From the IMG/VR virus record IMGVR_UViG_3300031669_000014, positions 1 through 64,000 of that record: DNA of 64,000 nucleotides; one strand, given 5' to 3'. The DNA comes from a virus. The position numbers and the translations under genes were made by a program. Below, in pieces: positions 1-49,500 of this stretch. The number at the start of each line of letters is the position of its first letter. The stretch's first letter is position 1. Under the pieces are notes generated by a model. That model had not been told where the DNA came from, did no database searches, and saw only the letters and a program-made list of their open reading frames with translations.

Positions 1-2
1 TA

Positions 3-161
3 ATCAAGCAATCAACTGACGGCAGGGATTCTGTATACTCTGGCCTAAAGGAACTGGCTGCCTGTGGATATGTTAAAAGGATGGACCTGCGCGACAGTCG
101 CGGGAGACTTGCAGGCTGTGAATATCTTGTCTATGAAAACCCGCAAACCGTTGATGTATAA
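3..161 (+). CDS. 3' end of an HTH replication-initiator-like protein (5'-truncated by window edge)
   Basis: Frame 3 reads IKQSTDGRDSVYSGLKELAACGYVKRMDLRDSRGRLAGCEYLVYENPQTVDV*, typical of Firmicute phage/plasmid wHTH Rep; not in ORF track. Confidence 0.7.
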   Translation: MKQSTDGRDSVYSGLKELAACGYVKRMDLRDSRGRLAGCEYLVYENPQTVDV

Positions 162-170
162 GGACTTCTA

Positions 171-287
171 CCGTATACGGGTTTTCCGTATCCGGTTTAT
201 CCGTATCGGGAAAATCGGACACTACTAATAATGATCTTTATTACTAATAATGAGTTAACTAATATCATCATGCCGATCTGTGGATAA
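171..287. promoter_or_regulatory. Putative replication origin: three iterons, AT-rich repeats, DnaA box
   Basis: CCGTATACGG/CCGTATCCGG/CCGTATCGGG at 171, 186, 201 (15-bp period); TACTAATAATGA at 223 and 242; TGTGGATAA (consensus DnaA box, reverse) at 279-287. Confidence 0.65.
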
Positions 288-313
288 CTTTAAGATATGA
301 AAGGGTGTCATAA

Positions 314-2108: not shown

Positions 2109-2110
2109 GA

Positions 2111-2803
2111 TCATCCTTTCATTTTATCGTACTCGTACAGCACCCGGATAAGCGCATAAAAATCCTCGCTTCGATTCTCCGGAGAAACAACAAGACCATG
2201 CGCCACGGCCCACATTACACTATCTTTGGCCCAATCCGGGACCACGGCTTCCACTTCCCCTTTCCAAGCACAACCAAGCGCCCGGGCGATACCCTTGGCG
2301 TAGGCGCCGGCCAAGCCATCAAGGAAGGAGCCATCCTTTAGTTTCGCAGCATCAAATTGGTTACTAATGAAAAGGTTCTCGAAAAGCATGGCCGGCATGG
2401 ATGTATCCCGCAGAACAGCAAAATTGGCCGTCTTTTTCCCTCTATCCATAAAACCATACTGCCGGTAAAAGTTAGCGACTTCAGTGTGTACGTAGAAGCG
2501 AAGATTATCGGCCTTCTGGCTACCCGGGTAAGTGAAACTCTCAAAACCGGTTGCATCCGCACTTACTGCGCTATTGACGTGGATGCTCAAAAAGAAATCA
2601 GCCTCCGGGTAAACGTTGGCCGCGATGCAAATATCAGCCAGTTTGTTTTCATGGACAATAACGCTGTCAATGCCGTATGCTGGCAATTTAGCGGCAATCT
2701 TACCGCATAGGATTACGTTGATGTCGGCCTCGTGGATACCGTTTCCGACGGCTCCAGGGTCAAGGTTGTCAAAGTGTCCAGGATTAATAATCACGAGTGC
2801 CAT
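2111..2803 (-). CDS. Endolysin, N-acetylmuramoyl-L-alanine amidase (Amidase_3)
   Basis: INPGH...DPGA...E, SIHVNS, ANFAVLRDT, FENLFISN; C-terminal PDWAKDSVMWAV (SLH-like). Confidence 0.92.
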   Translation of the reverse strand: MALVIINPGHFDNLDPGAVGNGIHEADINVILCGKIAAKLPAYGIDSVIVHENKLADICIAANVYPEADFFLSIHVNSAVSADATGFESFTYPGSQKADNLRFYVHTEVANFYRQYGFMDRGKKTANFAVLRDTSMPAMLFENLFISNQFDAAKLKDGSFLDGLAGAYAKGIARALGCAWKGEVEAVVPDWAKDSVMWAVAHGLVVSPENRSEDFYALIRVLYEYDKMKG

Positions 2804-2813
2804 AAATAACCCC

Positions 2814-3089
2814 CTATTTTATTATTATTACAGCCATTACCGCCGCGACAATAGCCGCTACAACCCCGGCAATTGACGTATTAACCACGATATCCCAACG
2901 CTTACGCGGGGTTTCGGTTATCTTGTCAATCTTCTTCTTCACATCGTCCAGGGTTATCTTGATATACTGCAATGTCACTTCCGTTTTCCCGGCGTTGACA
3001 TCTTGGGCACCCTGGCCCCGCTGTAATTTATCAATGTCTTTCTCCGCAGCATCCATCCGCTTTTCGAGCTTGCAGTTAATGCAGTCCAT
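2814..3089 (-). CDS. Coiled coil + C-terminal TM protein (XhlA-like lysis accessory)
   Basis: AGGAGG RBS before MDCINC (track start 3176); C-terminal TM. Confidence 0.6.
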   Translation of the reverse strand: MDCINCKLEKRMDAAEKDIDKLQRGQGAQDVNAGKTEVTLQYIKITLDDVKKKIDKITETPRKRWDIVVNTSIAGVVAAIVAAVMAVIIIK

Positions 3090-3159
3090 TATGGGTCCTC
3101 CTACTCCTTTGGGGGTTTTATGGGTTTTTTGGGTTTCGGTAGTTTGGGATACTTTGGCA

Positions 3160-3429
3160 TTATTCATTACCTCCATTCTTATTATCGTTTACGTTTTGAT
3201 TATTGCTTTGTGTTTGGGTTACTGCTGGTGGCTCTGGATACTGGTAATCTGTCTTGAAATACAACCATGCGGTACCCATGATAGTAAACGAAAAGGCTAG
3301 CATTGCCACTATGAAAGCGGTTACTAACCTTTTGTTTAACTCATCCGTATTAGTTATGATCCGGTCAAATAGCCGGATGTTTTCTACTAACAGAGCGAAT
3401 ATTTCTTTTTGCTCCGTCGTCTTGTCCAC
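3160..3429 (-). CDS. Single-TM membrane protein
   Basis: Near-identical to 45841-46110; GTG start inferred from that copy. Confidence 0.6.
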   Translation of the reverse strand: MDKTTEQKEIFALLVENIRLFDRIITNTDELNKRLVTAFIVAMLAFSFTIMGTAWLYFKTDYQYPEPPAVTQTQSNNQNVNDNKNGGNE

Positions 3430-3501
3430 CCCCTGGTATAATTTTACAAAAAGGAAGCGTTTGACATGGACGCCTCCCGGCAAAGATGGTACTATTTAGG
3501 A

Positions 3502-3602
3502 GCAGGCAACAGAGGTTTGATCTCTGTTAAAACCCGCCGGGGCCACCCCCTGGGCGGGGCCTGCACCAACTAAGAAGGGGAGGAAATTATTCCTCCCCTC
3601 TT
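3502..3602. ncRNA. Structured three-way-junction RNA plus terminator-like hairpin (copy A)
   Basis: GCAGGC/GCCTGC closing stem, AACAGAG/CTCTGTT, CCCGCC/GGCGGG; compensatory change in copy B. Confidence 0.6.
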
Positions 3603-3647
3603 GCATTGAATACGATGTTAGGCGTATAATCTCCATAAAGGAGGTCG

Positions 3648-3878
3648 TTGAAAATGAAGGATTATCTATATCCACTGTGGCCCCTTTTTGTCTTAGCTTT
3701 CTTGGTTTATGGTTTTGAAATGGGTTTTGTTGTTATAAACCGCATTAAAGAAAAAGCTGGACAACTATTAGAAATCAGGTGGATTGGTTCTATAATCGCT
3801 TTAGCTTTTATGCTAGTCCTTTTTGCACTAATGGGGCACTTTAACGGTCCATATGTGGATAATCTTTGGGGTTTCTAG
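3648..3878 (+). CDS. Two-TM moron-like membrane protein (possible superinfection exclusion)
   Basis: Opposite strand to late genes, own TTGCAT-18-TATAAT promoter and AAGGAGG RBS; conserved at 46330. Confidence 0.65.
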   Translation: MKMKDYLYPLWPLFVLAFLVYGFEMGFVVINRIKEKAGQLLEIRWIGSIIALAFMLVLFALMGHFNGPYVDNLWGF

Positions 3879-6800
3879 CTATTTTCTTACTGCTATCCCA
3901 CCACCTTTCTTGTAAACCCGTTCACCCCGGGCCTTCAATATCTGCGTTTTAGCCACTTCGTTAGCATCGGCCATTATCCCCTGCATCTTCTTAACCGCCT
4001 CTTCAGGCTTCATGTTTTCAGACATCTTTGCAAAGCCCTTCTGCGTTAATTCCCCTACAAGACGTTGATAATCGGAATATTCCTGTCCGGACAAAACAAA
4101 CGACTTGCCGCTTACGGTGATCTTCTTCGGCATCACCCGGGGGATTTGACTTGTCTCCCCGGTCTGCTCGTAAATCTTATTTACCATGCCCACCTCGCGG
4201 GATGGATTGTACTGGTTTGTAAATGCAGGGTTCAGGAATACATTGAACGGGTTGTTGCTTCCACCCTGATACGTTTCCAGTGGTTGGCCAAGAGTGCCGT
4301 ATTTTCTCGGGAGATTACCGGCCAACCCGGGGATCTTGTTTCCAGCCCTGTTAAGTGATTCCTGTGTTTTGTTTGGGTCGTAAGTCTCACGTCGTTGATT
4401 ATCGGATAGTTGCTTAACCTGATTCAATAGTGTTGGGATAAACGACGCTGGAACACCTTCCAGGACCTTGATTAATCCTTGTTCAGCGTTGCCGTAGCCA
4501 CCGCCAAAAAGGGTTTGGATACCCTGCACTACCGGCTGGTCTGCAAAGGCGTTTATACCCGTTCCCAGGGCTTGCAGGATGGTTCCGGCAAGTCCAGCTG
4601 CGCTTCCTTTATTGGCGTCTACGTCTGCGCCGATAGCCAAGGGGATCGCCTGGGGCTGGAACCAGTCATAACTAACGATGGCGTCGCCCTTTTGCGTTTT
4701 CGTGTCACCGCCAAACACCAGACGCTTTAAGGCCGAGGCATTAATGCGGTATTCGCCAAATCCTTGTTCCCTATTTAGTTCGGCCAAGTCACGATCTTCT
4801 GGCGGTCTACCAGTAATGATTCCTAATTTATGCAGGAGCGCACCGGTACCGAATAAAGCGGCAGAACCAACGAGTGCCCGGGAGAACGATTCAACGAAAG
4901 CCTTCTGATTAAACTGCTGTTTGACAAGTGGTCTTGCTGCTTCCAGGATGGTCTTGACAAATCCAGCCGGGGAATAATCAATCCCACGCATCAAAAGGTT
5001 GGCCGGGGTACGAGGATATTTGACAATAAAATCACCTGCGCCAAATTCCTTGCTACCGGTTACTTTGTTTAGTAACTGTTTTATCCCTACGAACAATTTG
5101 CTTAAACCGTTATCGTCCTGGAATGTTTTATACAATCCGTCCAGGTGGGCGACATTTCTCATTTCCTCGGTTGGCGCGTTTACCTTCGCCGCCCTCATCT
5201 GATTAAGCAGACTTTCCTCATAGGCCCCCTGATAGAACGCCCGGTCTGATGCTCTCAATTCGATATTGAGTGCCTTTTCCGCAAACCCTAACGGGCCCTT
5301 GCGGAATGTCCTGCCCAGTGGAATATCAAACTTTCCAGTTAAGCCGGAAGTGTCAACCCCTAAAAGGGCGTCCTCCAGGCCGTGCTTCCACCCCTGCTTG
5401 AATCCCTTCGCCTGTGCGCCAAGGCTCGGCAATACTTTTGTACGCTGGCCGGTCGCCAGTGATAGTGCCTTATCAACGCCAGCACCGACAACGCCACTGA
5501 CATTTTCCATACCGGCAAATCCAAAGTTACCAACTATATTCCGGATTGCCGTCTTGGGGTTCAAAAGCTGGGCCATAGTCTGGATTGAGGCCACCTTACG
5601 CAGGAATGGAACGGGAACCTGTGCTGCAATAAGATCAAGGGTCTTGGCTATGGCAATGTCTTTGTCCCTACCATCGGACATACTGCCAATCTGTTCCATA
5701 CGGGTTTTGATGTCACCCATGATTTCAGGTTTAACCTGAATTTTTTGGGTTAACTTACCGGAAGTATTTTCAAGATCGCGATTGATGCTACTTATCGTTT
5801 TGACGTAATGCTTCTGCATTCCCTCCGGGGTCATCTTCCCCCAAAGGCGTAAAGACTGAATGGCCTGGCCTTGAGTAGTAGCCGTCTGTGATATGTTCTG
5901 AATTAAATCTGTGGCGTCCTCAAAACGTCCTTCCGCGTTTGCCTTCTGAACAAGTTTCAGCGCAACGGTGTTTGATAAGTCGGTCCCTGGGTTTTCCCGG
6001 ACAGACCTTTCAGCCTGGCGCATATCGGTATTGATTATTCTTTCTGCTAATTGAATGGTTCCTTCATTGTTATGAACATCGTAAGCACCGCGGCCACCGG
6101 GAACCATTTCATTAATTAAACCGCGCTGCACTTCCGGGGGCGTACCCTCGGCCTTTGCCGTACTTACCCCAAGGCTACGTACGCGCTGACCATTTGCCAG
6201 GGGTTCCATTTTCTCAGGAATGCGGTGGCCAAGGGGTAAACCATCCCCCTGCGGTAATCCCCCCTTTACAGGTTGCGCCATCGGAGGTGTAACTCTCAAA
6301 GAGGGCGACCCGCCGATTATGCGTTCACGGCCAGGTCCGACAAACTTGGTTAGTTCCGGTATCGCCCCCGCTGCCTGCCCAAGTCTGCTAAACTGCGCCT
6401 CATTTGCCGCCTGCTGCCGTAATCCCGGCCTACCTTGTATTGCCTCGACATCGTTCATAAGCCCCGGCAAGTCAATACCAGTATTTGCTTTTATATCAGC
6501 AAAAGCAGCTTCAACAGTTGTCCCCGGGGGGTACGCTGCAAGAACATCATTGTGCTTGACGTAGTTTTGTGCCTCTTGGATTCCTTCATTAAGGCGATCC
6601 ATTGCAGTCTTTTCGGTACCTGGGAGACGAAGAGAAGTAAACGATTTTTGCGGCGCTGTATTTACCCCAGGAGGAACTTCCGGTATTGGCAGGGTAGATT
6701 CTACCCCCGGAACTTCTCCCGGCCTCTTGAACGATGCCAGCGCCTTCCCGCCGCCATGCAACAACATACCCAGCAGCGCATTAGATGCCGCCGCAGTTCC

Positions 6801-29505: not shown

Positions 29506-29817
29506 TCAGACAGAACATCCAAACCATCCTCCTTCGCGGTCGCTGATCTTATTCTGCCGCCTCTGATCCATCACCAGCAGGCTGACCTCATCCTCATCCC
29601 TGCGAAGGTGCGCCGCTATTCCCGGGCCTGGCGTACCCGATTTCCAAAGTTCTCTAAAATCCCGTATCTGCACCGGCGTCCAGCAAAAGTCGATATCTTC
29701 CAGGATAATCACCGTTTCACCCTGGGGTGCTACGGCTCCCACGGGACGACCTACCTTGCCGGTGTATGGCTTAGTTGTGGGGATGTTGTGTTTGTGTAAC
29801 GTGCGATGGGATTGCAT
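29506..29817 (-). CDS. Phage HTH protein
   Basis: LEDIDFCW...LWKSG...IAAHLRRDEDEV. Confidence 0.6.
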   Translation of the reverse strand: MQSHRTLHKHNIPTTKPYTGKVGRPVGAVAPQGETVIILEDIDFCWTPVQIRDFRELWKSGTPGPGIAAHLRRDEDEVSLLVMDQRRQNKISDREGGWFGCSV

Positions 29818-32575
29818 TGGTGGTCACCTCCGGGAAATGTTTCTGCGATACTCTAATGCAAAACAACTCAATCTCACTCGCCCACAGAGTTTTTATTCCT
29901 GCTCGTTGACCAGCCAGCGGGAAGCCGGCCAGCCCATCAAATAAACTGCCAAGCGTTTTCAGCCCCAGAACTTCGGTTATCCTCCGCATTATCCACTCGA
30001 CACATGGTATCGCCAACCCGTTTCCGATTGCTTTATACTTTGCTGTATCCGATGCCCCAGGGATGTTAGTCCATCCGTCTGGAAGTCCCTGGAGGCGTTC
30101 TGCCTCAAGGGGAGTTAATCTACGGACTGCATAACCGGTAAATACTGGTTTACTTTGACCATCATCGGATCTCCGTACTTCTTGAACCTCTGATAATGCT
30201 TGTCGCAAAATCCGTATCCCTTTACTAGCTTCCCGCATATTAAGCAAAATTTCTTCTGACTGTGCTTTAAGTTGTGGCAACTCCGGCAAAGTCTCTCTAA
30301 ATTCTCCGGTTCGTTGTTTGTCCAATCCTCGTCCTTGTGGTGAACATCCAGCGCATTCGGCTTGCCACACTCCGAACAGGGACCGGGGGGAATCAATTTC
30401 TGCGATCTGCCGTGGTTTGTCCTCCAGTTGTCCGTTTCTATCTTCGGCTTGTTTCTGAACCCTTCGGCCATACAATTTTGATTGCAATACTTCCTCTTGT
30501 TGAAGTGAAGCAAGGATTCCATGTCCCCATTTGGAAAACGCTTCCTCTCCAATTTCTTTCCGCAGTGCTCGCAATATCTCAATGGTGTTTCTTTCATCGG
30601 CATTACCATCAATTTCACTCCCTTTTGGTTCAATAACAATATTGTCAGTGTCGCCCCGATGTGACATATTTGCCTTGGCTAAAAGCGTGTTGGCCGGGGC
30701 AGGATAAGCCACCGCTTGTCCTCCAGCCAAATCAAGAGTATAAGCAACTTCTTCGCATATCCCTAACCCATTCGATCCGGTCTGGTCAGTCTTGCATACA
30801 TAGGTTGGTTGAGCAACAAACGTCTGCTGTTTCATCCCCGGTTCTGCCGCCAATGCCCCGGCTTTACCTTTTAAATCTCTTACCTCGTCGCGCTGGTTTT
30901 GGGCAAAGACTATAGGTTCCACAACATACGTCGTACTACTTGGCTTATCTGCCTTGCTTGCCTGTGACCGCAGGGTGTGGGTTATTTCATGTTGGCCACC
31001 AGGACCGTAAGCCACAGGTATCAATGTTTCCGTCTCCGGGTCATATCGCCGACCGGTCCCGGTCGTTACGCACTGGGCAACGGCGTGAGCAGCACCCCGG
31101 CTATCAAGCGTAAACATCTTGCCATCATCCCTAAAACCCGGCCCTTGCGCCCCAGCTTCGTCCTTGCGCCCAATAATGCTGTGTTGAATAGCTATACACT
31201 GCGTCGCTCGATCAGTGTCCAAAGCACCTATTACGGGTCCGTTTACGTGGTCTTGGCGACCGTTAAAGGCGATTGGCAGCAGATACAATCCTGTTTTTGC
31301 CCCGCCTCCACCACCACCAGCTTTCAAAGTTACGCTTTTCCTGGCATTTATTGTTATACGGTCTGATGTTTGGTCAAGGTTGACTGTTGTTTCAACGCCA
31401 TCTCCAACACAGGCGGCAACTTCTTCCCTCGCTTTTCGGCCCTCCGGAGAATCCCCTGACAGGCTTTGCTCGACAAAAAGTATTTCTCCGGCACATTCGC
31501 CTCCAAAATGTCGCTCAAGTTGCTCTGTACAGTTGGATGCTCTATCGAGATAATCATTCCAACGCTGAACCCATTCCAGTTCTGTAAACAAGTTGCTGCT
31601 TGACTGTCTCGCATAGTTCATACACTCCTTTGTCACGGTTAAAAGTAACGATTCCGAGTTGTAGAAGTCCTGGTAAGAGTTGCTCAACTGAACGATGAGC
31701 TCTGCCATGCTCAGACCTAGAAGTGAACAGGTGTAAATTGTCAATTGTGTCGTGTTGCTTATCAGTGTCGATGTGGTGGACGAGTTCGCCAGGCTGTAGG
31801 CTTCTTCCCAAATGTTCTTCCATAACTTCAATATGTCTGAATATCTCTTTTCGTTTGCCGTTCTTGTCTGGTGGTCTTCTAATTGCATATCCCTTTGTAA
31901 ATCTATAATCAACGTGCCTAAATGGGACTCCAAGCTTTTGTGCTCTATCAGAAGTATCGTTAATGTCTCTGCCAAGTTCTCCAGCAATATCAACCAGTTT
32001 TCTTCCGTTTTTATTCCGAATAACCTCATCCTCCGCAGTAGTCCATCTTTTGCATCTTTTTTTAGGGGATAGTCCGATTTTAACAGCTCGATGCCTGACG
32101 CTCGTAATTGTTCTACCAAGACGTATTGCAATATCTCGATGATTAGTTGAGTAATAATGCTCACGGATATAATCGTCTTGTTCTGGAGTATATAATTTAC
32201 GCTTACCCATACTGCAAAAATCCTCCTTCTGCGCTGCGGAACCCCCATATTCTGAGCATCCAAAACAGTCATATCAACTACAAAACCAAGTTCCTCCATG
32301 GAATCCAATACCGACTCAATATCTTTACTGCCATTACTCGAAAATGCCCCTGGAACATTTTCCCATATGCAAACTTTTGGGTATTCTCCGTTGGTGGCTG
32401 ATTGCATTTCATGGATTATCCTCACCGCCTCGTTAAAAAGTCCTGACCTTGCACCTTCCAGACCAGCACGTTTACCGGCCACACTCAAGTCCTGGCAGGG
32501 TGAGCCGAAGGTTATTATGTCAACGGGGGCTATTCTGCCGCCGTGGATGTCGGTTACACTGCCAAGGTGCTTCAA
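29771..32575 (-). CDS. dcm: C5-cytosine DNA methyltransferase, circularly permuted, multi-TRD, with two HNH-coding insertions
   Basis: GSPCQD (IV), WENV (VI), QRRRRIF (VIII), RRLTPLEAERLQG (IX), KAIGN (X), then SLFDGLAG (I) and ASEIE (II) at C-terminus. Confidence 0.85.
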   Translation of the reverse strand: MKHLGSVTDIHGGRIAPVDIITFGSPCQDLSVAGKRAGLEGARSGLFNEAVRIIHEMQSATNGEYPKVCIWENVPGAFSSNGSKDIESVLDSMEELGFVVDMTVLDAQNMGVPQRRRRIFAVWVSVNYILQNKTIISVSIITQLIIEILQYVLVEQLRASGIELLKSDYPLKKDAKDGLLRRMRLFGIKTEENWLILLENLAETLTILLIEHKSLESHLGTLIIDLQRDMQLEDHQTRTANEKRYSDILKLWKNIWEEAYSLANSSTTSTLISNTTQLTIYTCSLLGLSMAELIVQLSNSYQDFYNSESLLLTVTKECMNYARQSSSNLFTELEWVQRWNDYLDRASNCTEQLERHFGGECAGEILFVEQSLSGDSPEGRKAREEVAACVGDGVETTVNLDQTSDRITINARKSVTLKAGGGGGGAKTGLYLLPIAFNGRQDHVNGPVIGALDTDRATQCIAIQHSIIGRKDEAGAQGPGFRDDGKMFTLDSRGAAHAVAQCVTTGTGRRYDPETETLIPVAYGPGGQHEITHTLRSQASKADKPSSTTYVVEPIVFAQNQRDEVRDLKGKAGALAAEPGMKQQTFVAQPTYVCKTDQTGSNGLGICEEVAYTLDLAGGQAVAYPAPANTLLAKANMSHRGDTDNIVIEPKGSEIDGNADERNTIEILRALRKEIGEEAFSKWGHGILASLQQEEVLQSKLYGRRVQKQAEDRNGQLEDKPRQIAEIDSPRSLFGVWQAECAGCSPQGRGLDKQRTGEFRETLPELPQLKAQSEEILLNMREASKGIRILRQALSEVQEVRRSDDGQSKPVFTGYAVRRLTPLEAERLQGLPDGWTNIPGASDTAKYKAIGNGLAIPCVEWIMRRITEVLGLKTLGSLFDGLAGFPLAGQRAGIKTLWASEIELFCIRVSQKHFPEVTTNAIPSHVTQTQHPHN
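30115..30609 (-). CDS. HNH endonuclease nested in MTase (+1 frame)
   Basis: CSECG...DVHHKDEDWTNNEPENLERLCRSCH; Zn fingers; GGGAG RBS before ATG 30609 (track start 30639). Confidence 0.85.
   Translation of the reverse strand: MVMPMKETPLRYCEHCGKKLERKRFPNGDMESLLHFNKRKYCNQNCMAEGFRNKPKIETDNWRTNHGRSQKLIPPGPCSECGKPNALDVHHKDEDWTNNEPENLERLCRSCHNLKHSQKKFCLICGKLVKGYGFCDKHYQRFKKYGDPMMVKVNQYLPVMQSVD
31354..31614 (-). CDS. Small MTase-associated ORF nested in +1 frame (M.EcoHK31I beta-like arrangement)
   Basis: LSDILEANVPEKYFLSSKACQGILRRAEKRGKKLP; AAGGAG RBS. Confidence 0.7.
   Translation of the reverse strand: MRDSQAATCLQNWNGFSVGMIISIEHPTVQSNLSDILEANVPEKYFLSSKACQGILRRAEKRGKKLPPVLEMALKQQSTLTKHQTV
31554..32210 (-). 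CDS. HNH_3-type endonuclease with Myb-like repeats nested in MTase (-1 frame)
   Basis: YTPEQDDYIR / WTTAEDEVIR; RHIEVMEEHLGR.L..ELVHHID..K....NL...EHGRAH; AGGAGG RBS. Confidence 0.85.
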   Translation of the reverse strand: MGKRKLYTPEQDDYIREHYYSTNHRDIAIRLGRTITSVRHRAVKIGLSPKKRCKRWTTAEDEVIRNKNGRKLVDIAGELGRDINDTSDRAQKLGVPFRHVDYRFTKGYAIRRPPDKNGKRKEIFRHIEVMEEHLGRSLQPGELVHHIDTDKQHDTIDNLHLFTSRSEHGRAHRSVEQLLPGLLQLGIVTFNRDKGVYELCETVKQQLVYRTGMGSALE

Positions 32576-39847: not shown

Positions 39848-39982
39848 ATTTTCACCCCCTCCGGCCTCGCCGGTTACCATAACTTAAACAACCCGTTGAA
39901 CGTCCACAGCATGACTGTGATGGCTACCGCTGCCACCAGGACGTTGAACCCCTTATCGACGATGTACCCGATTAACGCATAT

Positions 39983-40459
39983 CTAGCCAACGTCTTGAGG
40001 GTTTGCACCTTGCTCCACCTCCTTTGTAAACCTAACCATTTTTAGACATCTTTTTATTAACTGTGATATTTCTTCCGATATTTTCTCCGGTTCGCCAGTT
40101 GGTTCTTCTTCAACATCCTTGTATTTGTAAACAATGCCGCAATTTAAACAAGCCGCAGTAATAAGTACACCAGCGTCTAGATATTCTGGCCGACCTCCGC
40201 ATACCGGGCAATTCGGGCCGTCTGCAACTCGGTGGGCCTCGACATGAACCACCGGCCACTCGCCTATAGGCGTCTGTATCGGCTCCCCCATGCGCACGGT
40301 GTATCCGTCCATGTGTATCTTGCTAAGTTTGTAATTGTATAAAATCTGCGTGATAACTTCGTCCATGTGTACCCGGGATAGTTTGCCGTAAGCGTTAAGT
40401 CGAACGAGATCGTGGATTCTGGCGCGGTCGGTGGCTGTTGGCAATGCGTGGAGTTTCAT
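39983..40459 (-). CDS. Hypothetical protein with Zn ribbon
   Basis: CPVCG...CLNCG; AGGAGG RBS. Confidence 0.6.
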   Translation of the reverse strand: MKLHALPTATDRARIHDLVRLNAYGKLSRVHMDEVITQILYNYKLSKIHMDGYTVRMGEPIQTPIGEWPVVHVEAHRVADGPNCPVCGGRPEYLDAGVLITAACLNCGIVYKYKDVEEEPTGEPEKISEEISQLIKRCLKMVRFTKEVEQGANPQDVG

Positions 40460-40470
40460 GGTTTTACCTC

Positions 40471-40719
40471 CTATACATCGGGACAAGTTGGGATCTTATC
40501 GTTTCTGGTTTCTATAACGGAAACCTCATCTGCAAAAAAAATATCTTCAATCGACATATTAAGTCTTTCAGAGATTAATTTTGCTTCAAACATGGAAATT
40601 CTTATGGCTCCAGTTTCCTTCTTATAATATGCCGCTGCCGTTTTTAAACCTAGTAATTCGGCCATTTCTATCGCTGAGACGCTTTTATTATTTCTTATTG
40701 TGCGAAGTTTTTCATACAT
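40471..40719 (-). CDS. Cro-like XRE regulator
   Basis: XRE HTH, divergent from cI. Confidence 0.85.
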   Translation of the reverse strand: MYEKLRTIRNNKSVSAIEMAELLGLKTAAAYYKKETGAIRISMFEAKLISERLNMSIEDIFFADEVSVIETRNDKIPTCPDV

Positions 40720-40872: not shown

Positions 40873-41274
40873 TTGGTAAATGTGGGGATTGGTAAAAGAT
40901 TGAGAGAATTAAGGGAGCGGGAAGGGCTTACTCAGGAAGAGTTGGGTAAAATAATCAATCAAAAAAAGTCCAATATCTCCAAATATGAAAATGGCAAATT
41001 ACAGCCAAGTCTTGAAACAATAGAATCTCTTTTAGGATTCTTTGGAGTTTCGCCTAATTATTTTTTTAATTATACTCCCCATGCCGAACACAACGAAAAA
41101 AATAAAACGGCCTATTTCAAACCAACTAACCAGATCCCAGAAGAGAAACGGAAACTCATAGAAAAACTTCTGGAATTCAATGATAATGATTACAAAAAAA
41201 TTGAGGCTATTGCCGAAGTTTTCATTCAGATAGACAGATCAAAGAACGAGCAGGCAGCCGCAATGGGAAGCTAA
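40873..41274 (+). CDS. CI-like XRE repressor (no peptidase domain)
   Basis: IGKRLRELREREGLTQEELGK...ISKYENG. Confidence 0.88.
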   Translation: MVNVGIGKRLRELREREGLTQEELGKIINQKKSNISKYENGKLQPSLETIESLLGFFGVSPNYFFNYTPHAEHNEKNKTAYFKPTNQIPEEKRKLIEKLLEFNDNDYKKIEAIAEVFIQIDRSKNEQAAAMGS

Positions 41275-41526: not shown

Positions 41527-41559
41527 AAAATAACCCCCTCGTGTGAGGGGGTTTTATTC
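41527..41559. terminator. Bidirectional intrinsic terminator
   Basis: AACCCCCTC-GTGT-GAGGGGGTT flanked by A and T tracts. Confidence 0.8.
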
Positions 41560-41574
41560 TGCGTCGTAATTTAG

Positions 41575-41603
41575 TTGACTAGCCATATGTTGGGGCGTAT
41601 AAT
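41575..41603 (+). promoter_or_regulatory. sigmaA promoter
   Basis: TTGACT-17-TATAAT. Confidence 0.85.
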
Positions 41604-41609
41604 GGAAGG

Positions 41610-42165
41610 GACAACCATATAATGAAAGTAACCCCCCGGTTAGACCTCCGAAGGGTTACAGGCGGGACAACCTCACAACAGGCCGGCCCGACGGTTACTG
41701 TACTAAGATTGTAACTTACATTTTTAGTATAGTCAAGACAGAATTCCCGGCTTTTTGTGAGGTTCCTCGCAAGAAGCCTTTTTGATTATCCGAAAAGGTT
41801 TCGGGTAAATAGGCTGATAACCAAGCATGCCCGGGTAGTGACCGGGATTATAACCGTTAGATGGGGATGTTTTTCCTTCCCAGAATTGAAACCGTGCCAC
41901 GATGCTAACGAACCTATGATGCACCCTGGAAACCGTGGTGTAGAGGCTACGAGCAGATGAGAGATGTCACCGATGCTAACCAAGCAGGCTGTAAGATATG
42001 GTGGACCTGGGGGCCGTCAAAAGACTAGGTGATGCGGCGTAATAGCCGCCTGTTGAAGGGACGACCGACCGAGACTAGGCCAAGTTCCAAGACAGTGTTT
42101 TCCCGCCAGCGCGGGATCTCTGTCTCTAAAACTCCCTCCCTCAACCGGCCCCCATCCTAAAATAA
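41610..42165 (+). ncRNA. Long structured non-coding RNA, candidate replication primer/origin
   Basis: Strong promoter, no credible ORF, many stems; ends approximate. Confidence 0.55.
41622..41701 (-). ncRNA. ~80-nt antisense counter-transcript
   Basis: Minus-strand TTGACT-17-TACAAT (41736-41708); ends at GTAACCC/GGGTTAC hairpin + TTTCATT. Confidence 0.65.
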
Positions 42166-42183
42166 TCACTCCGGAGGAATTAC

Positions 42184-42621
42184 ATGCACTACCTAAACAC
42201 GAAAGAAGCAGCAGCAATCCTAAACTGTGGGACCAAGAATGTTACCCTGATGTGTGCTGCCGGGAAGTTTCCAGGGTCCAAAAAGGTGATGGGGAAGAAA
42301 ACGGACGAGTGGCGCATACCGGCCCAGGAAGTAATTGACTACCAGGCTAACAAGGAAGTTGAGGCCGAAGTTTTGCCGCCTGAAAGCCATGAACTGGTCA
42401 CGGTTAAGTCTCTGGCTGATTTTTTTATGGATGAACGGAGAAGGAACGATGCTGAACATGATGAAACAAGGAGAATACTTGAAGAAGAAGTAAAAAGGAG
42501 GAATGAAGAAATAATGGAGTTACGCGGGATACTGGCGAAACAGGGGGAAGAAGTCGCGGTAGTTTGGGGGAAGGTTGCGGAGATTGAAAAGAAAAAGCGC
42601 CCGTGGTGGCGCTGGTGGTAG
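42184..42621 (+). CDS. RacA/pSK1 Par-like HTH-coiled-coil protein (paralog of 314)
   Basis: MHYLNTKEAAAILNC...KKRPWWRWW; GGAGG RBS. Confidence 0.6.
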   Translation: MHYLNTKEAAAILNCGTKNVTLMCAAGKFPGSKKVMGKKTDEWRIPAQEVIDYQANKEVEAEVLPPESHELVTVKSLADFFMDERRRNDAEHDETRRILEEEVKRRNEEIMELRGILAKQGEEVAVVWGKVAEIEKKKRPWWRWW

Positions 42622-44765: not shown

Positions 44766-44791
44766 ATAGAGCACCCCCTTTTTCGTGGTTA

Positions 44792-45484
44792 TCAGCCTTT
44801 CATCTTGTCGTACTCGTACAGCACCCGGATAAGCGCATAAAAATCCTCGCTTCGATTCTCCGGAGAAACAACAAGACTATGCGCCACAGCCCACATTAGC
44901 GCCTCTTTGGCCCAATCAGGAACCACAGTAGCCACCTCACCTTTCCACGCGCATCCCAGTGCCCGGGCGATACCCTTGGCGTAGGCGCCGGCCAGACCAT
45001 CAAGAAAAACTTCGTTTTTTAACTTCGCAGCGTCGAATTGGTTAGAAATGAATAGGTTCTCAAACAACATCGCTGGCATTAACGTATCCCGGAGAACAGC
45101 AAAATTAGCCGTCTTTTTGCCACGGTCCACGAAGCCATACTGCCGGTAAAAGTTAGCTACTTCAGTGTGTACGTAGAAGCGAAGATTATCGGCTTTCTGG
45201 CTACCTGGGTAAGTGAAACTCTCAAAACCGGTGGCGGACGCGTTTACTGCGCTATTGACGTGGATGCTCAAAAAGAAATCAGCCTCCGGGTAAACGTTGG
45301 CCGCGATGCAAATATCAGCCAGTTTGTTTTCATGCACCGTCACGTTATCAATCCCATATAGCGGCAATTTAGCGGCAATCTTGCTGCATATGTTTACGTC
45401 AATGTCGGCCTCGTGGATACCGTTTCCGACGGCGCCAGGATCAAGATTGTCAAAGTGCCCAGGATTTTGAATTACAAGTGCCAT
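44792..45484 (-). CDS. Endolysin amidase B
   Basis: Same length as and highly similar to 2111-2803. Confidence 0.92.
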   Translation of the reverse strand: MALVIQNPGHFDNLDPGAVGNGIHEADIDVNICSKIAAKLPLYGIDNVTVHENKLADICIAANVYPEADFFLSIHVNSAVNASATGFESFTYPGSQKADNLRFYVHTEVANFYRQYGFVDRGKKTANFAVLRDTLMPAMLFENLFISNQFDAAKLKNEVFLDGLAGAYAKGIARALGCAWKGEVATVVPDWAKEALMWAVAHSLVVSPENRSEDFYALIRVLYEYDKMKG

Positions 45485-45494
45485 AAATATCCCC

Positions 45495-45770
45495 CTATTT
45501 TATTATTACTAAAGCCATTACCGCTGCGACAATAGCCGCTACAACCCCGGCGATTGATGTGTTAACCACGATATCCCAACGCTTACGTGGGGTTTCGGTT
45601 ATCTTGTCAATTTTCTTTTTCACATCATCCAGGGTTATCTTGATATACTGTAATGTCACTTCCGTTCGTCCAGCATTGACATCTTGGGCGCCCTGGTCCT
45701 TCTGTAATTTGTTGATGTCTCTCTCAGCAGAATCCATCCGCTTTTCGAGCTTACAGTTAATACAGTCCAT
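45495..45770 (-). CDS. XhlA-like coiled-coil/TM protein B
   Basis: Homolog of 2814-3089. Confidence 0.6.
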   Translation of the reverse strand: MDCINCKLEKRMDSAERDINKLQKDQGAQDVNAGRTEVTLQYIKITLDDVKKKIDKITETPRKRWDIVVNTSIAGVVAAIVAAVMALVIIK

Positions 45771-45840
45771 TATGGGGCCTCCTACTCCTTTGGGGGTTTT
45801 ATGGGTTTTTTTGGTTTCGGTGGTTTGGGATACTTTTGCA

Positions 45841-46110
45841 TTATTCATTACCTCCACTCTGATTATTGTTTACGTTTTGATTATTGCTTTGTGTTTGGGT
45901 TACTGCGGGTGGTTCTGGATACTGGTAATCAGTCCTAAAATACAACCATGCGGTACCCATGATGGTAAACGAAAAGGCCAGCATTGCCACTATGAAAGCG
46001 GTTACTAGCCTTTTGTTTATCTCATCAGTCTTGGTTATGATCCGGTCGAATAGCCGGATATTTTCTACTAACAGCGCGGAGATTTCTTTTTGCTCCGTCG
46101 TCTTGTCCAC
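45841..46110 (-). CDS. Single-TM membrane protein B
   Basis: Homolog of 3160-3429. Confidence 0.6.
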   Translation of the reverse strand: MDKTTEQKEISALLVENIRLFDRIITKTDEINKRLVTAFIVAMLAFSFTIMGTAWLYFRTDYQYPEPPAVTQTQSNNQNVNNNQSGGNE

Positions 46111-46182
46111 CCCCTGGTGAAATTTTACAAAAAGGAAATGCCTGACATGGACGCCTCCCGGTAAAGATGGTACTATTTAGGA

Positions 46183-46283
46183 GTAGGCAACAGAGGTTTC
46201 AGCTCTGTTAAAACCCGCCGGGGCCACCCCCTGGGCGGGGCCTACACCAACTAAGAAGGGGAGGGAATTAAACCTCCCCTCTT
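46183..46283. ncRNA. Structured RNA (copy B)
   Basis: GTAGGC/GCCTAC closing stem; other changes confined to loops. Confidence 0.6.
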
Positions 46284-46329
46284 GCATTGAATAAGGTACT
46301 CGGCGTATAATCTCCAATAAAGGAGGTAG

Positions 46330-46560
46330 TTGAGAATGAAGGATTATCTATATCCGCTGTGGCCCCTTTTTGTCTTAGCTTTCTTGGTTTATGGTTTTGA
46401 AATGGGTTTTGTTGTTATAAACCGCATTAAAGAAAAAGCGGGACAACTATTAGAAAGAAGGTGGATTGGTTCTATAATCGCTTTAGTTTTTATGCTAGTC
46501 CTTTTTGCACTAATGGGGCACTTTAACGGGCCATATGTGGATAATCTTTGGGGTTTCTAG
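46330..46560 (+). CDS. Two-TM moron-like protein B
   Basis: Near-identical to 3648-3878. Confidence 0.65.
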   Translation: MRMKDYLYPLWPLFVLAFLVYGFEMGFVVINRIKEKAGQLLERRWIGSIIALVFMLVLFALMGHFNGPYVDNLWGF

Positions 46561-49500
46561 CTACTTTCTTACTGCTATCCCTCCGCCTTTCTTGTAAACC
46601 CGTTCACCCCGGGCCTTCAATATCTGCGTTTTAGCCGCTTCATTGGCGTCGGACATAACATCTTTCATCCGCTTAGCCGCCTCTGCCGGTTTCATGTTTT
46701 CCGACATCCTCGCGAATCCTTTCTGCGTTAATTCCCCTACAAGACGTTGATAATCTGCATATTCCTGCCCGGTCAAAACAAACGACTTGCCGCTTACGGT
46801 GATCTTCTTCGGCATCACCCGGGGGATTTGACTTGTCTCCCCGGTCTGCTCGTAAATCTTGTTGACCATGCCCACCTCGCGGGATGGATTGTACTGGTTT
46901 GTAAATGCCGGGTTCAAGAATACATTAAACGGGCCATTACTTCCCCCTTGGTAAGTTTCTAGCGGCTGCCCCAAGGTACCGTATTTCACCGGGAGGTTAC
47001 CAGCTAACCCAGGTATTTTGTTCCCTACCCTGTTAAGCGCTTCCTGGGTTTTATTCGGGTCGTAAGTCTCTCTCCGCTGGTTGTCGGATAGTTGCTTAAC
47101 CTGATTCAATAGTGTTGGGATAAACGAGGCCGGGACGCCCTCCAGGACCTTAATCAAACCCTGTTCAGCGTTACCGTAGCCGCCGCCAAAAAGGGTTTGG
47201 ATACCCTGCACTACCGGCTGGTCTGCAAAGGCGTTTATACCCGTTCCCAGGGCTTGCAGGATGGTTCCGGCAAGTCCAGCCGCGCTTCCTTTATTGGCGT
47301 CCACGTCTGCGCCGATAGCCAAGGGGATCGCCTGGGGTTGGAACCAATCGAAACTGACGATAGTATCGCCCTTTTGAGTTTTCGTGTCGCCGCCGAACAC
47401 CAGACGCTTTAAGGCCGAGGCATTAAGGCGGTATTCGCCAAATCCTTGTTCCCTATTTAGTTCGGCCAAGTCACGATCCTCTGGCGGTCTGCCAGTAATG
47501 ATTCCTAATTTATGCAGGAGCGCACCGGTACCGAATAAAGCGGTAGACCCGACGAGCGCCCGGGAGAACGATTCAACAAAAGCCTTCTGGTTAAACTGCT
47601 GTTTGACAAGTGGTCTTGCTGCTTCCAGGATGGTCTTGACAAATCCAGCCGGGGAATAATCAATCCCACGCATCAAAAGGTTGGCCGGGGTACGAGGATA
47701 TTTGACAATAAAATCACCTGCGCCAAATTCCTTGCTACCGGTTACTTTGTTTAGTAACTGTTTTATCCCTACGAACAATTTGCTTAAACCGTTATCGTCC
47801 TGGAATGTTTTATACAATCCGTCCAGGTGGGCGACATTTCTCATTTCCTCGGTTGGCGCGTTTACCTTCGCCGCCCTCATCTGATTAAGCAGACTTTCCT
47901 CATAGGCCCCCTGATAGAACGCCCGGTCTGATGCTCTCAATTCGATATTGAGTGCCTTTTCCGCAAACCCTAACGGGCCCTTGCGGAATGTCCTGCCCAG
48001 TGGAATATCAAACTTTCCAGTTAAGCCGGAAGTGTCAACCCCTAAAAGGGCGTCCTCCAGGCCGTGCTTCCACCCCTGCTTGAATCCCTTCGCCTGTGCG
48101 CCAAGGCTCGGCAATACTTTTGTACGCTGGCCGGTCGCCAGTGATAGTGCCTTATCAACGCCAGCACCGACAACGCCACTGACATTTTCCATACCGGCAA
48201 ATCCAAAGTTACCAACTATATTCCGGATTGCCGTCTTGGGGTTCAAAAGCTGGGCCATAGTCTGGATTGAGGCCACCTTACGCAGGAATGGAACGGGAAC
48301 CTGTGCTGCAATAAGATCAAGGGTCTTGGCTATGGCAATGTCTTTGTCCCTACCATCGGACATACTGCCAATCTGTTCCATACGGGTTTTGATGTCACCC
48401 ATGATTTCAGGTTTAACCTGAATTTTTTGGGTTAACTTACCGGAAGTATTTTCAAGATCGCGATTGATGCTACTTATCGTTTTGACGTAATGCTTCTGCA
48501 TTCCCTCCGGGGTCATCTTCCCCCAAAGGCGTAAAGACTGAATGGCCTGGCCTTGAGTAGTAGCCGTCTGTGATATGTTCTGAATTAAATCTGTGGCGTC
48601 CTCAAAACGTCCTTCCGCGTTTGCCTTCTGAACAAGTTTCAGAGCAACGGTGTTTGATAGGTCGGTACCAGGGTTCTCCCGGACGAACCTTTCAGCTTGG
48701 CGCACATCGGTATTGATGATTCTGTCTGCCAATTGAATGGTTCTTTCATTGCTATGAACATCGTAAGCGCCTTGCCCCCCGGGAACCATTTCATTGATTA
48801 AACCGCGCTGTACTTCCGGGGGCGTACCCTCGGCCTTTGCCGCACTTACCCCAAGACTACGGACACGCTGACCATTTGCCAGGGGCTCCATTTTCTCAGG
48901 AATGCGGCGTATAGGACTAATGCCCTGCGGCAATATCCCTCGCCCACCAACCCCAGTTATTGCATTATCTGCAACAACTGACGGTACCGCACCCTCCGGG
49001 GGCGTCCCGCCAAGTATGCGCTCACGGCCAGGTCCGACAAGTTTGGTAGGTTCCGGTATCGCCCCCGCTGCCTGCCCTAATCTGCTAAACTGTGCCTCAT
49101 TTGCCGCCTGTTGACGTAATCCCGGCCTACCTTGTATTGCCTCGACATCGTTCATGAGCTTAGGTAAGTCAATACCAGTGTTGGCCTTGATATCAGCCAA
49201 AGCCGCCTCAACCGTTGTCCCCGGGGGGTACGCCGCAAGTACATCATTGTGCTTGACGAAATTCTGCGCTGTCTGGATTCCCTCGTTAAGGCGATCCATT
49301 GCCGCCTTTTCGGTACCCGGGAGACGAAGAGAAGTAAACGGCTTTTGCGGCGCTGTATCTACCCCAGGAGAAACTTCCGGTATTGGCAGGGTAGATTCTG
49401 CCCCCGGTACCCCTCCCGGCCTCCTGAGCGATTCCAGCGCCTTCCCGCCGCCATGCAACAACATACCCAGCAGCGCATTAGATGCCGCCGCAGTTCCAGC

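Follow-up and report, generated by a model that had tools for sequence, protein, structure and literature searches.

A predicted antisense attenuator ahead of orphan non-coding DNA in the replicon slot of an integrase-less phage

The locus and its question

What does a copy-control leader govern when the replication gene that ought to follow it is missing? The question is raised by IMG/VR record IMGVR_UViG_3300031669_000014, which runs to position 80564 and of which positions 1-64000 form the window, the 64,000-nucleotide (nt) stretch of viral DNA analysed here. The record is an 80.6-kb linear contig in which two related ~41-kb genomes lie head to tail, genome A at ~1-41560 and genome B at ~41560-80564. 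The element of interest is at the left end of genome B, upstream of a gene that starts at 42184 and whose product matches the HTH_17 family. There a leader predicted to be under antisense control is intact, but the rep gene, iterons, AT-rich stretch and DnaA box that would be expected after it are replaced by ~400 nt of orphan DNA that has no open reading frame (ORF). The initial annotation had seen in this arrangement a candidate for a Rep-less, RNA-primed plasmid origin under antisense control. Our own leaning, held at a little short of even confidence, is that genome B carries a rep-less derivative of an iteron-type replicon, whose transcript now serves as the leader of the HTH_17 gene. For comparison there are eight loci that were recovered by way of the HTH_17 protein: L002/L007, L003, L004, L005, L006, L008 and L009.

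The predicted leader switch

The features on which the argument turns are these.

41532-41553, either strand: strong bidirectional terminator hairpin that closes the repressor-side operon, kept in relatives L002, L008 and L009
41575-41603, plus strand: sense promoter TTGACT-17-TATAAT, 11/12 match, predicted start near 41610
41610-41785, plus strand: leader RNA with an antiterminator/terminator switch, fold z -6.8 (41610-41790), homologous to the rep leader of L002
41620-41701, minus strand: predicted antisense countertranscript of ~80 nt, its ends placed from the -10 box and the T-tract
41669-41764, plus strand: antiterminator helix, 41669-41686 pairing with 41747-41764 around a hairpin at 41693-41733 (inverted repeat I1; minimum-energy fold of the free leader)
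41708-41736, minus strand: antisense promoter TTGACT-17-TACAAT, 10/12 match
41749-41785, plus strand: attenuator, an intrinsic terminator of 13 pairs followed by TTTTTG (hairpin 41749-41778; constrained folds)

Much of what had been annotated at the 5′ end stands up well. The terminator followed by the sense promoter is where it was said to be, the elements for a convergent promoter and a terminated ~80-nt RNA directed against the 5′ end are present, and the long-range pairing around the inner hairpin is recovered both as an inverted repeat (18 nt at 89% complementarity) and in the fold. A scan of 1.8 kb gave 10 promoter-like sites against 3.1 +/- 1.8 in shuffles, with the sense and antisense promoters being the best two, and a promoter is found at the position of the sense promoter in L002, L005, L008 and L009 also. 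The predicted antisense RNA shows full complementarity to the leader's 5′ half and stops at a minus-strand intrinsic terminator at 41659-41628, consisting of 12 pairs and then TTTCATT.

What the initial annotation lacked is the attenuator. The terminator hairpin at 41749-41778 with its T-tract overlaps the 3′ arm of the long-range helix, and the two structures compete for the same nucleotides. In its minimum-energy fold the free leader adopts the antiterminator, and that helix sequesters the left arm of the terminator; when the antisense target at 41622-41701 is masked, the thermodynamic prediction is that the minimum-energy fold forms the terminator. The sense leader would thus fold by default into the antiterminator (41669-86 with 41747-64), the ~80-nt antisense RNA would pair with 41620-41701 and so free 41749-41778 to act as an intrinsic terminator, and more antisense RNA, as at higher copy number, would mean less read-through. 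With antisense dosage freeing the terminator, read-through should drop as copy number climbs. The elements and their thermodynamic switch are there in the sequence and its folds; transcription from the two promoters and the action of the antisense RNA are predicted from them. On this footing 41575-41785 is a predicted countertranscript-driven transcription attenuator, and the 5′ element is an additional example of a known antisense-attenuator type.

The type is that of pT181 RNAI/II, pIP501 RNAIII and pAMbeta1, in all of which rep mRNA of Gram-positive plasmids is subject to countertranscript-driven transcription attenuation. For reviews, see those cited in PMC5703833 and Brantl 2014. The genome B leader shares with it the convergent promoters, the short terminated antisense RNA complementary to the leader, and an antiterminator and a terminator of which only one can form at a time, the 5′ arm of the former being covered by the antisense target; in the relatives of genome B the position directly 5′ of rep is shared as well. 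It departs from that type in that the genome B attenuator has no rep 3′ of it and in that the host element is a phage rather than a small plasmid. A further departure is that it lacks a sequence or covariance-model match to the Rfam countertranscript RNA (ctRNA) families: no ctRNA or RNAI model matched within 41600-41790, so that the leader, while predicted to work like the attenuators of those three plasmids, stands outside any curated family. Antisense control, as initially proposed, is well supported on paper; of the two layouts to which it had been likened, the predicted control has that of pT181/pIP501 attenuation and not that of ColE1-style primer refolding.

The leader is homologous to that of L002. 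A global alignment of the two leaders scored 42, against -58.6 +/- 12.9 for shuffles, about 7.8 standard deviations above. The similarity begins at the terminator and reaches as far as the T-tract of the attenuator, with none downstream, and the attenuator of genome B aligns with an attenuator in L002 that directly precedes the ribosome-binding site of rep.

What the slot holds in relatives

Between the conserved repressor-side terminator and the HTH_17 gene is a slot whose contents are the same in kind wherever there is sufficient upstream DNA to see them: a sigma-70 promoter, a leader with an antisense promoter, a ribosome-binding site, a Rep gene, iterons, an AT-rich stretch and a DnaA box, in that order. 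The convergent promoter pair stands 5′ of a winged-helix Rep gene in all the relatives examined (L002/L007, L003, L005, L008 and L009). An attenuator lies directly upstream of rep in L002, L003, L005, L008 and L009, though not in genome B. The Rep genes belong to PHROG replication initiation or DnaD-like families (E 1e-13 to 1e-45), are of at least three unrelated types, and are accompanied by repeats specific to the Rep type (GGGACAAT, CCGTATC, GTGTCCGAAAA, CTAGTGTCAC); a DnaA box, TTATCCACA, lies 40-60 nt 5′ of the HTH_17 start.

Genome A has this layout as well.

1-313, plus strand: genome A slot, with the Rep C-terminus at 3-161, CCGTAT-type iterons at ~171-226, AT-rich repeats and a DnaA box at 279-287

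The DnaA box is perfect and in minus orientation, the Rep C-terminus has 58% identity to L002 Rep1, and a homologue of the HTH_17 gene (314-784) follows. L005 provides a complete leader and rep of this A type. The A-type Rep domain is found in 272 plasmid records, mostly from Bacillota, and in a 13-kb Brevibacillus plasmid an A-type Rep sits between a tyrosine recombinase and ParA.

The Rep cassettes have been swapped between relatives, at L002 2690-4000, L003 3260-4000, L005 1-653, L008 634-1321 and L009 1849-2500. Each cassette has a similar antisense-controlled leader on one side and, on the other, a conserved ~75-nt block that contains the TTATCCACA DnaA box. The series shows modular replicon exchange in an uncharacterised phage-plasmid family. 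The replicon is also invaded by HNH nuclease sequences in two relatives: at ~230-790 in L004 the A-type iterons are separated from the HTH_17 gene by a free-standing HNH ORF, and at 2915-3472 in L002 the C-terminus of Rep1 is an HNH domain, for which there is a weak match to HNH of IscB-like type.

The initial annotation took an integrase to be missing from this phage, and it is. No tyrosine or serine recombinase was found in the record or in G001, a relative that is complete at 47.9 kb and has direct terminal repeats, and neither an rve transposase nor ParA is present in the record. In L003 a small (205-aa) Xer-like tyrosine recombinase is encoded at 2564-3181, directly 5′ of the replicon leader, a position that suggests multimer resolution rather than integration. 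The other family members examined are without any integrase. Genomes A and B each carry, elsewhere, a DnaD-type lytic replication module. Taken together, what can be read from the gene content is best read as a family of phage-plasmids in which the slot would be the prophage maintenance replicon.

Part of the initial view of the locus as a plasmid replicon is borne out by this comparison. The slot is indeed the plasmid-type replicon slot of integrase-less temperate phages, as the Rep genes, iterons and DnaA boxes of the relatives attest. The 400 nt that fill it in genome B, however, bring no origin landmark, no homologue and, in their middle, no excess of structure. The homology and synteny of the leader and the absence of rep, iterons and DnaA box are matters of observation; any replication phenotype would have to be predicted.

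The 400-nt stretch

Two features divide the stretch.

41784-42004, plus strand: non-coding middle, fold z -0.5, no coding signal
42000-42162, plus strand: 3′ domain, fold z -3.0 (1/200 shuffles folds as well), inverted repeat I11

Could it conceal a protein gene? In no frame of 41784-42183 was there a coding signal, codon-usage log-odds being at most 0.03 against 0.205 +/- 0.09 for the real genes of the record, and ORFs of 30-67 aa had no relatives in Pfam, PHROG or protein databases. The absence of a credible ORF, as first annotated, is thereby borne out and a hidden protein gene is rejected. On the minus strand one frame across 41600-42190 has 2 stops in 197 codons; its codon usage is not coding-like, the matches of a 76-aa open stretch within it were to tandem-repeat proteins only, an artefact, and its openness is most likely chance. 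A decayed rep gene can likewise be set aside, since tblastn with four Rep sequences gave chance matches only, and local DNA comparison revealed no similarity to the rep or origin region of any relative.

Nor could a homologue of the stretch be retrieved by blastn against phage and plasmid collections, by exact patterns (four derived from genome B in viral contigs, one in genome contigs), or in the complete records of L002 and L003; a pattern search with the shared terminator had the contig of L002 as its sole match. With no B-type homologue retrieved, evidence from conservation or covariation is absent. Infernal with Rfam, a check that had been proposed with the initial annotation, was run and matched no family: none reached its gathering score over the whole window, and over the region there was noise only with E up to 10, so that a known RNA family is rejected. 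A match to RNAI in the window lies outside the element and is noise, scoring 14.8 bits where the gathering score is 47.

Of the landmarks of an origin, a DnaA box (none within one mismatch), tandem repeats, an AT-rich stretch and a G-rich R-loop signature were all sought in the 400 nt and none was found. What it does have are three imperfect direct repeats of 14-16 nt (GMTGMTAACSAAGC), centred on TAAC, at 41813, 41899 and 41970, with 8 matching windows against 0.12 in shuffles. There are also three boxes, GAAGGGAC(A/G)ACC, in genome B at 41605, 41661 and 42055, two of them in the leader, which share the 11-mer AAGGGACAACC with the iterons of L002, an identity that is suggestive but, with P about 0.15, not significant alone. 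Neither set of elements, the three dispersed GGGAC(A/G)AC boxes or the three GMTGMTAACSAAGC repeats, is in tandem or has a partner Rep. In GC content the stretch, at 52%, exceeds the genome, at 48%; its GC skew is positive solely at 41800-42100.

The picture of an ornate, ~550-nt structured RNA has to be given up: only the leader and the 3′ domain exceed chance. The whole 586 nt has a fold z of -4.55 on the plus strand and -3.03 on the minus, and the signal is local, with sliding 120-nt windows giving z near 0 between 41800 and 42120. The downstream stems and C-rich tract that had been pointed out are real enough as sequence. In the 3′ domain a closing helix TGGGGGCCG/CGGCCCCCA surrounds the last two hairpins of the initial list, GCGGC/GCCGC and AGACAG..CCCGC/GCGGG..CTGTCT; the domain ends with the C-rich tract, 42128-42158. 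Separately, a short hairpin at 41861-41892 with ...GAATTGAAAC after it is similar to the 3′ handle that some CRISPR repeats have; the match to Rfam CRISPR-DR2, at 17.6 bits and E 2.4, is at noise level and falls on the opposite strand.

Replicons with and without Rep

ColE1 was the first parallel drawn for this locus. Control there is by primer folding and R-loop formation, not by an intrinsic terminator, and ColE1 replicons have Gram-negative hosts. Genome B resembles ColE1 in having no Rep, a ~550-nt sense RNA from a strong promoter (here a predicted transcript of ~575 nt) and a short antisense RNA against its 5′ end. It differs in its predicted antisense-dependent intrinsic terminator and in the lack of a G-rich/C-rich arrangement that would form a hybrid on the sense strand. 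In place of antisense-inhibited primer maturation there would be attenuation, and on this point the parallel with RNA II/RNA I fails.

A second comparison is with the iteron-type theta replicons of phage-plasmids, of the P1 repA/incC-incA type and represented here by L002-L009 and genome A. The slot and flanking genes are the same and L002 supplies a homologous leader. Unlike them, the 400 nt of genome B lack a rep ORF, an AT-rich element and a DnaA box, and any iterons that reach significance.

A third comparison is with cluster A mycobacteriophages. Of their extrachromosomal prophages with parABS, 95% are without RepA, although close relatives carry it (PMC7157519). Five non-RepA phages that were tested in plasmids, RedRock, Alma, LadyBird, Gladiator and Et2Brutus, replicate from RNA-based origins in an ORF-less transcribed region of ~600 bp that is both necessary and sufficient (Wetzel et al. 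2020, PMC7157519). The shared features are an integrase-less temperate phage, an ORF-less stretch of ~600 bp in the maintenance slot (with transcription predicted in the present case), and Rep in relatives. In contrast to genome B, their hosts are Actinobacteria and their origins lie by parABS with the RNA read away from parA; genome B has no ParA or ParB, its RNA reads into the HTH_17 gene, and it has an explicit antisense attenuator. Genome B DNA found no match to the mycobacteriophage origins in the phage collection. For those phages replication was shown, while genome B is known from sequence alone.

Weighing the readings

Because the orphan 400 nt replaces the rep cassette, the attenuator-controlled transcript is at the least a long 5′ untranslated region (5′ UTR) of the RacA-like HTH_17 gene. 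The promoter scan had no second plus-strand promoter between 41603 and 42183, and with no separate promoter found the leader promoter of genome B has no coding target other than the HTH_17 gene. The simplest account is accordingly that the transcript is the HTH_17 leader. It had been allowed at the outset that the transcript might be merely the leader of a par gene; the leader part of that suggestion is now the simplest reading, though its ‘par’ label is unsupported, as the supposed par-like gene matched only HTH_17, has a RacA-like fold and has no ParA for company anywhere in the record. In a rep-less derivative the leader would now meter HTH_17 expression, and prophage replication, if there is any, would proceed via the DnaD-type lytic module, a co-resident helper or an unproven RNA origin.

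Several points weigh against this reading. Stable lysogens would not be expected of a temperate phage that has neither integrase nor plasmid replicon, yet the genome B switch is intact and not decayed. The 400 nt constitute a replacement rather than a simple deletion, and their internal repeats and modestly structured 3′ domain hint at function. The B lineage seems to persist, since proteins ~89% identical to its HTH_17 recur on two other metagenome contigs. In L002 the terminator appears in a simple fold of the leader whether or not the antisense target is masked, so that the switch model is not equally clear across relatives. The record itself is a metagenome assembly of two joined genomes, the join possibly being via a shared immunity region, and the evidence is computational throughout. 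The next most probable reading is a protein-free RNA origin within the 400 nt.

What would such an origin entail? The read-through RNA of 41610-42183, or its DNA, would start replication with host enzymes only, and the antisense RNA and attenuator would set copy number. The stretch occupies the slot in which every relative has its Rep/iteron replicon, the copy-control leader ahead of it is homologous and intact, and the phage has no integrase or other plasmid-type replicon; the stretch itself is ORF-less, richer in GC than the genome and predicted to be transcribed; and the mycobacteriophages furnish a non-RepA precedent (PMC7157519). These are substantial considerations, but a Rep-independent maintenance origin still seems to us rather unlikely. 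There is no homologue in anything searched, and so no conservation or covariation to appeal to; the middle 220 nt are unstructured; the 3′ end of the RNA is C-rich and not G-rich, which would put the G-clusters that favour R-loops on the antisense strand; the DnaA box, AT-rich element and other landmarks of an origin are missing; there is no similarity to ColE1 RNA I/II or to any Rfam family; and control by an intrinsic terminator is a mark of rep-mRNA attenuation, not of primer maturation. The fuller proposal, that in a Bacillota-type phage-plasmid a protein-free RNA origin has replaced the Rep/iteron cassette behind a homologous antisense attenuator, with attenuation of the replication RNA setting copy number, is to be regarded as unlikely. 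It is also conceivable that the 400 nt are a non-coding RNA of some other kind, unrelated to replication, either a signal-sensing 5′-UTR element for HTH_17 translation or an anti-defence RNA. The 3′ domain ends just 5′ of the ribosome-binding site and has a CUCCCUCCCUC tract to which the Shine-Dalgarno sequence, GGAGG, might be paired, and the stretch has its internal repeats; but with no Rfam family even at E up to 10, no homologues from which covariation might be sought and an unstructured middle, this has to be judged improbable.

If instead genome B had lost rep and kept cis sites, Rep might be supplied in trans by a co-resident phage-plasmid, be it genome A or an L002-type element. In favour are the 11-mer shared by the three GAAGGGAC(A/G)ACC boxes and the L002 iterons and the head-to-tail placing of A and B within a single record, and L002-type and A-type elements come from the same metagenome set. 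However, that 11-mer is unremarkable at its P value and the repeat family (GGGACAAC boxes) is marginally significant by estimate; genome B resembles neither the A-type iterons nor the origin region of any relative and is without an AT-rich stretch or DnaA box, so that helper dependence must be accounted quite improbable. Least probable, in our estimation, is that the A-to-B join or the 400-nt insert is an artefact of assembly or recombination and exists in no replicating phage. A linear record of 80.6 kb, double the complete relatives and composed of two related genomes, invites the suspicion, as does the fact that contig L005 starts at the leader divergence, an indication of a branch in the assembly graph. 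Against this, the 400 nt lie within unique sequence specific to genome B, and since the flanking leader and HTH_17 gene have both diverged from A there is no repeat to cause a mis-join at that point; a chimeric join 5′ of 41560 would leave the sequence after the B promoter unchanged.

The outcome matters in different ways. Should the 400 nt prove to be an origin, a Gram-positive-type phage-plasmid would have provided a compact replicon that needs no Rep, is under antisense control and could be of use as a vector backbone; RNA-based prophage maintenance would extend beyond actinobacteriophages, with this as a second independent case and one with an explicit control circuit; and an RNA origin would have taken the place of a Rep origin by a natural swap. 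The relatives, with their Rep cassettes swapped behind the same leader, would be ready-made controls. Should it not be an origin, there is a clear instance of modular replicon exchange in a little-sampled phage-plasmid family and of an attenuator re-used to meter a RacA-like DNA-binding protein, and the significance would be moderate and for the specialist.

The HTH_17 gene and the repressor side

The genes that flank the slot are the following.

40873-41274, plus strand: cI-like HTH_3 repressor gene (Pfam HTH_3, E 1e-15; PHROG transcriptional repressor families)
42184-42621, plus strand: HTH_17 gene, 145 aa (Pfam HTH_17, E 3e-8)

An AlphaFold2 model of the HTH_17 protein (pLDDT 77.6) has a winged HTH of MerR/excisionase type, one helix of ~60 residues and a W-rich tail, RPWWRWW. 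With Foldseek the nearest solved folds, at E-values that are weak, were DNA-bound RacA, BldC and MerR regulators; a sequence search of solved structures produced nothing meaningful. Relatives of the protein are absent from the phage and plasmid collections and number a handful in metagenomes. On the strength of the model it may tether DNA, in a RacA-like role.

On the other side, a cro-like HTH gene (40471-40719, minus strand) is divergent from the cI-like repressor gene, and the replicon slot is 3′ of the latter, with a 43-codon ORF and the terminator at 41532-41553 in between.

The record

Genomes A and B are 92.6% similar over 2110-6225 and 44791-48907, and 89% over 39859-40152 and the record end, 80279-80564. 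The record is twice the size of complete relatives (the complete L002 record is 47.9 kb and the L009 contig 42.3 kb). Because L005 starts exactly where A-type and B-type leaders diverge after the shared terminator, the head-to-tail join may be no true tandem or cointegrate but an assembly path through an immunity region that the two genomes share. Were it such an artefact, the B-specific sequence after the B promoter would not be altered by it. Elsewhere in genome A, 29771-32575 is an ORF for a 934-aa DNA methyltransferase, to which methyltransferase families were matched in split N- and C-terminal pieces.

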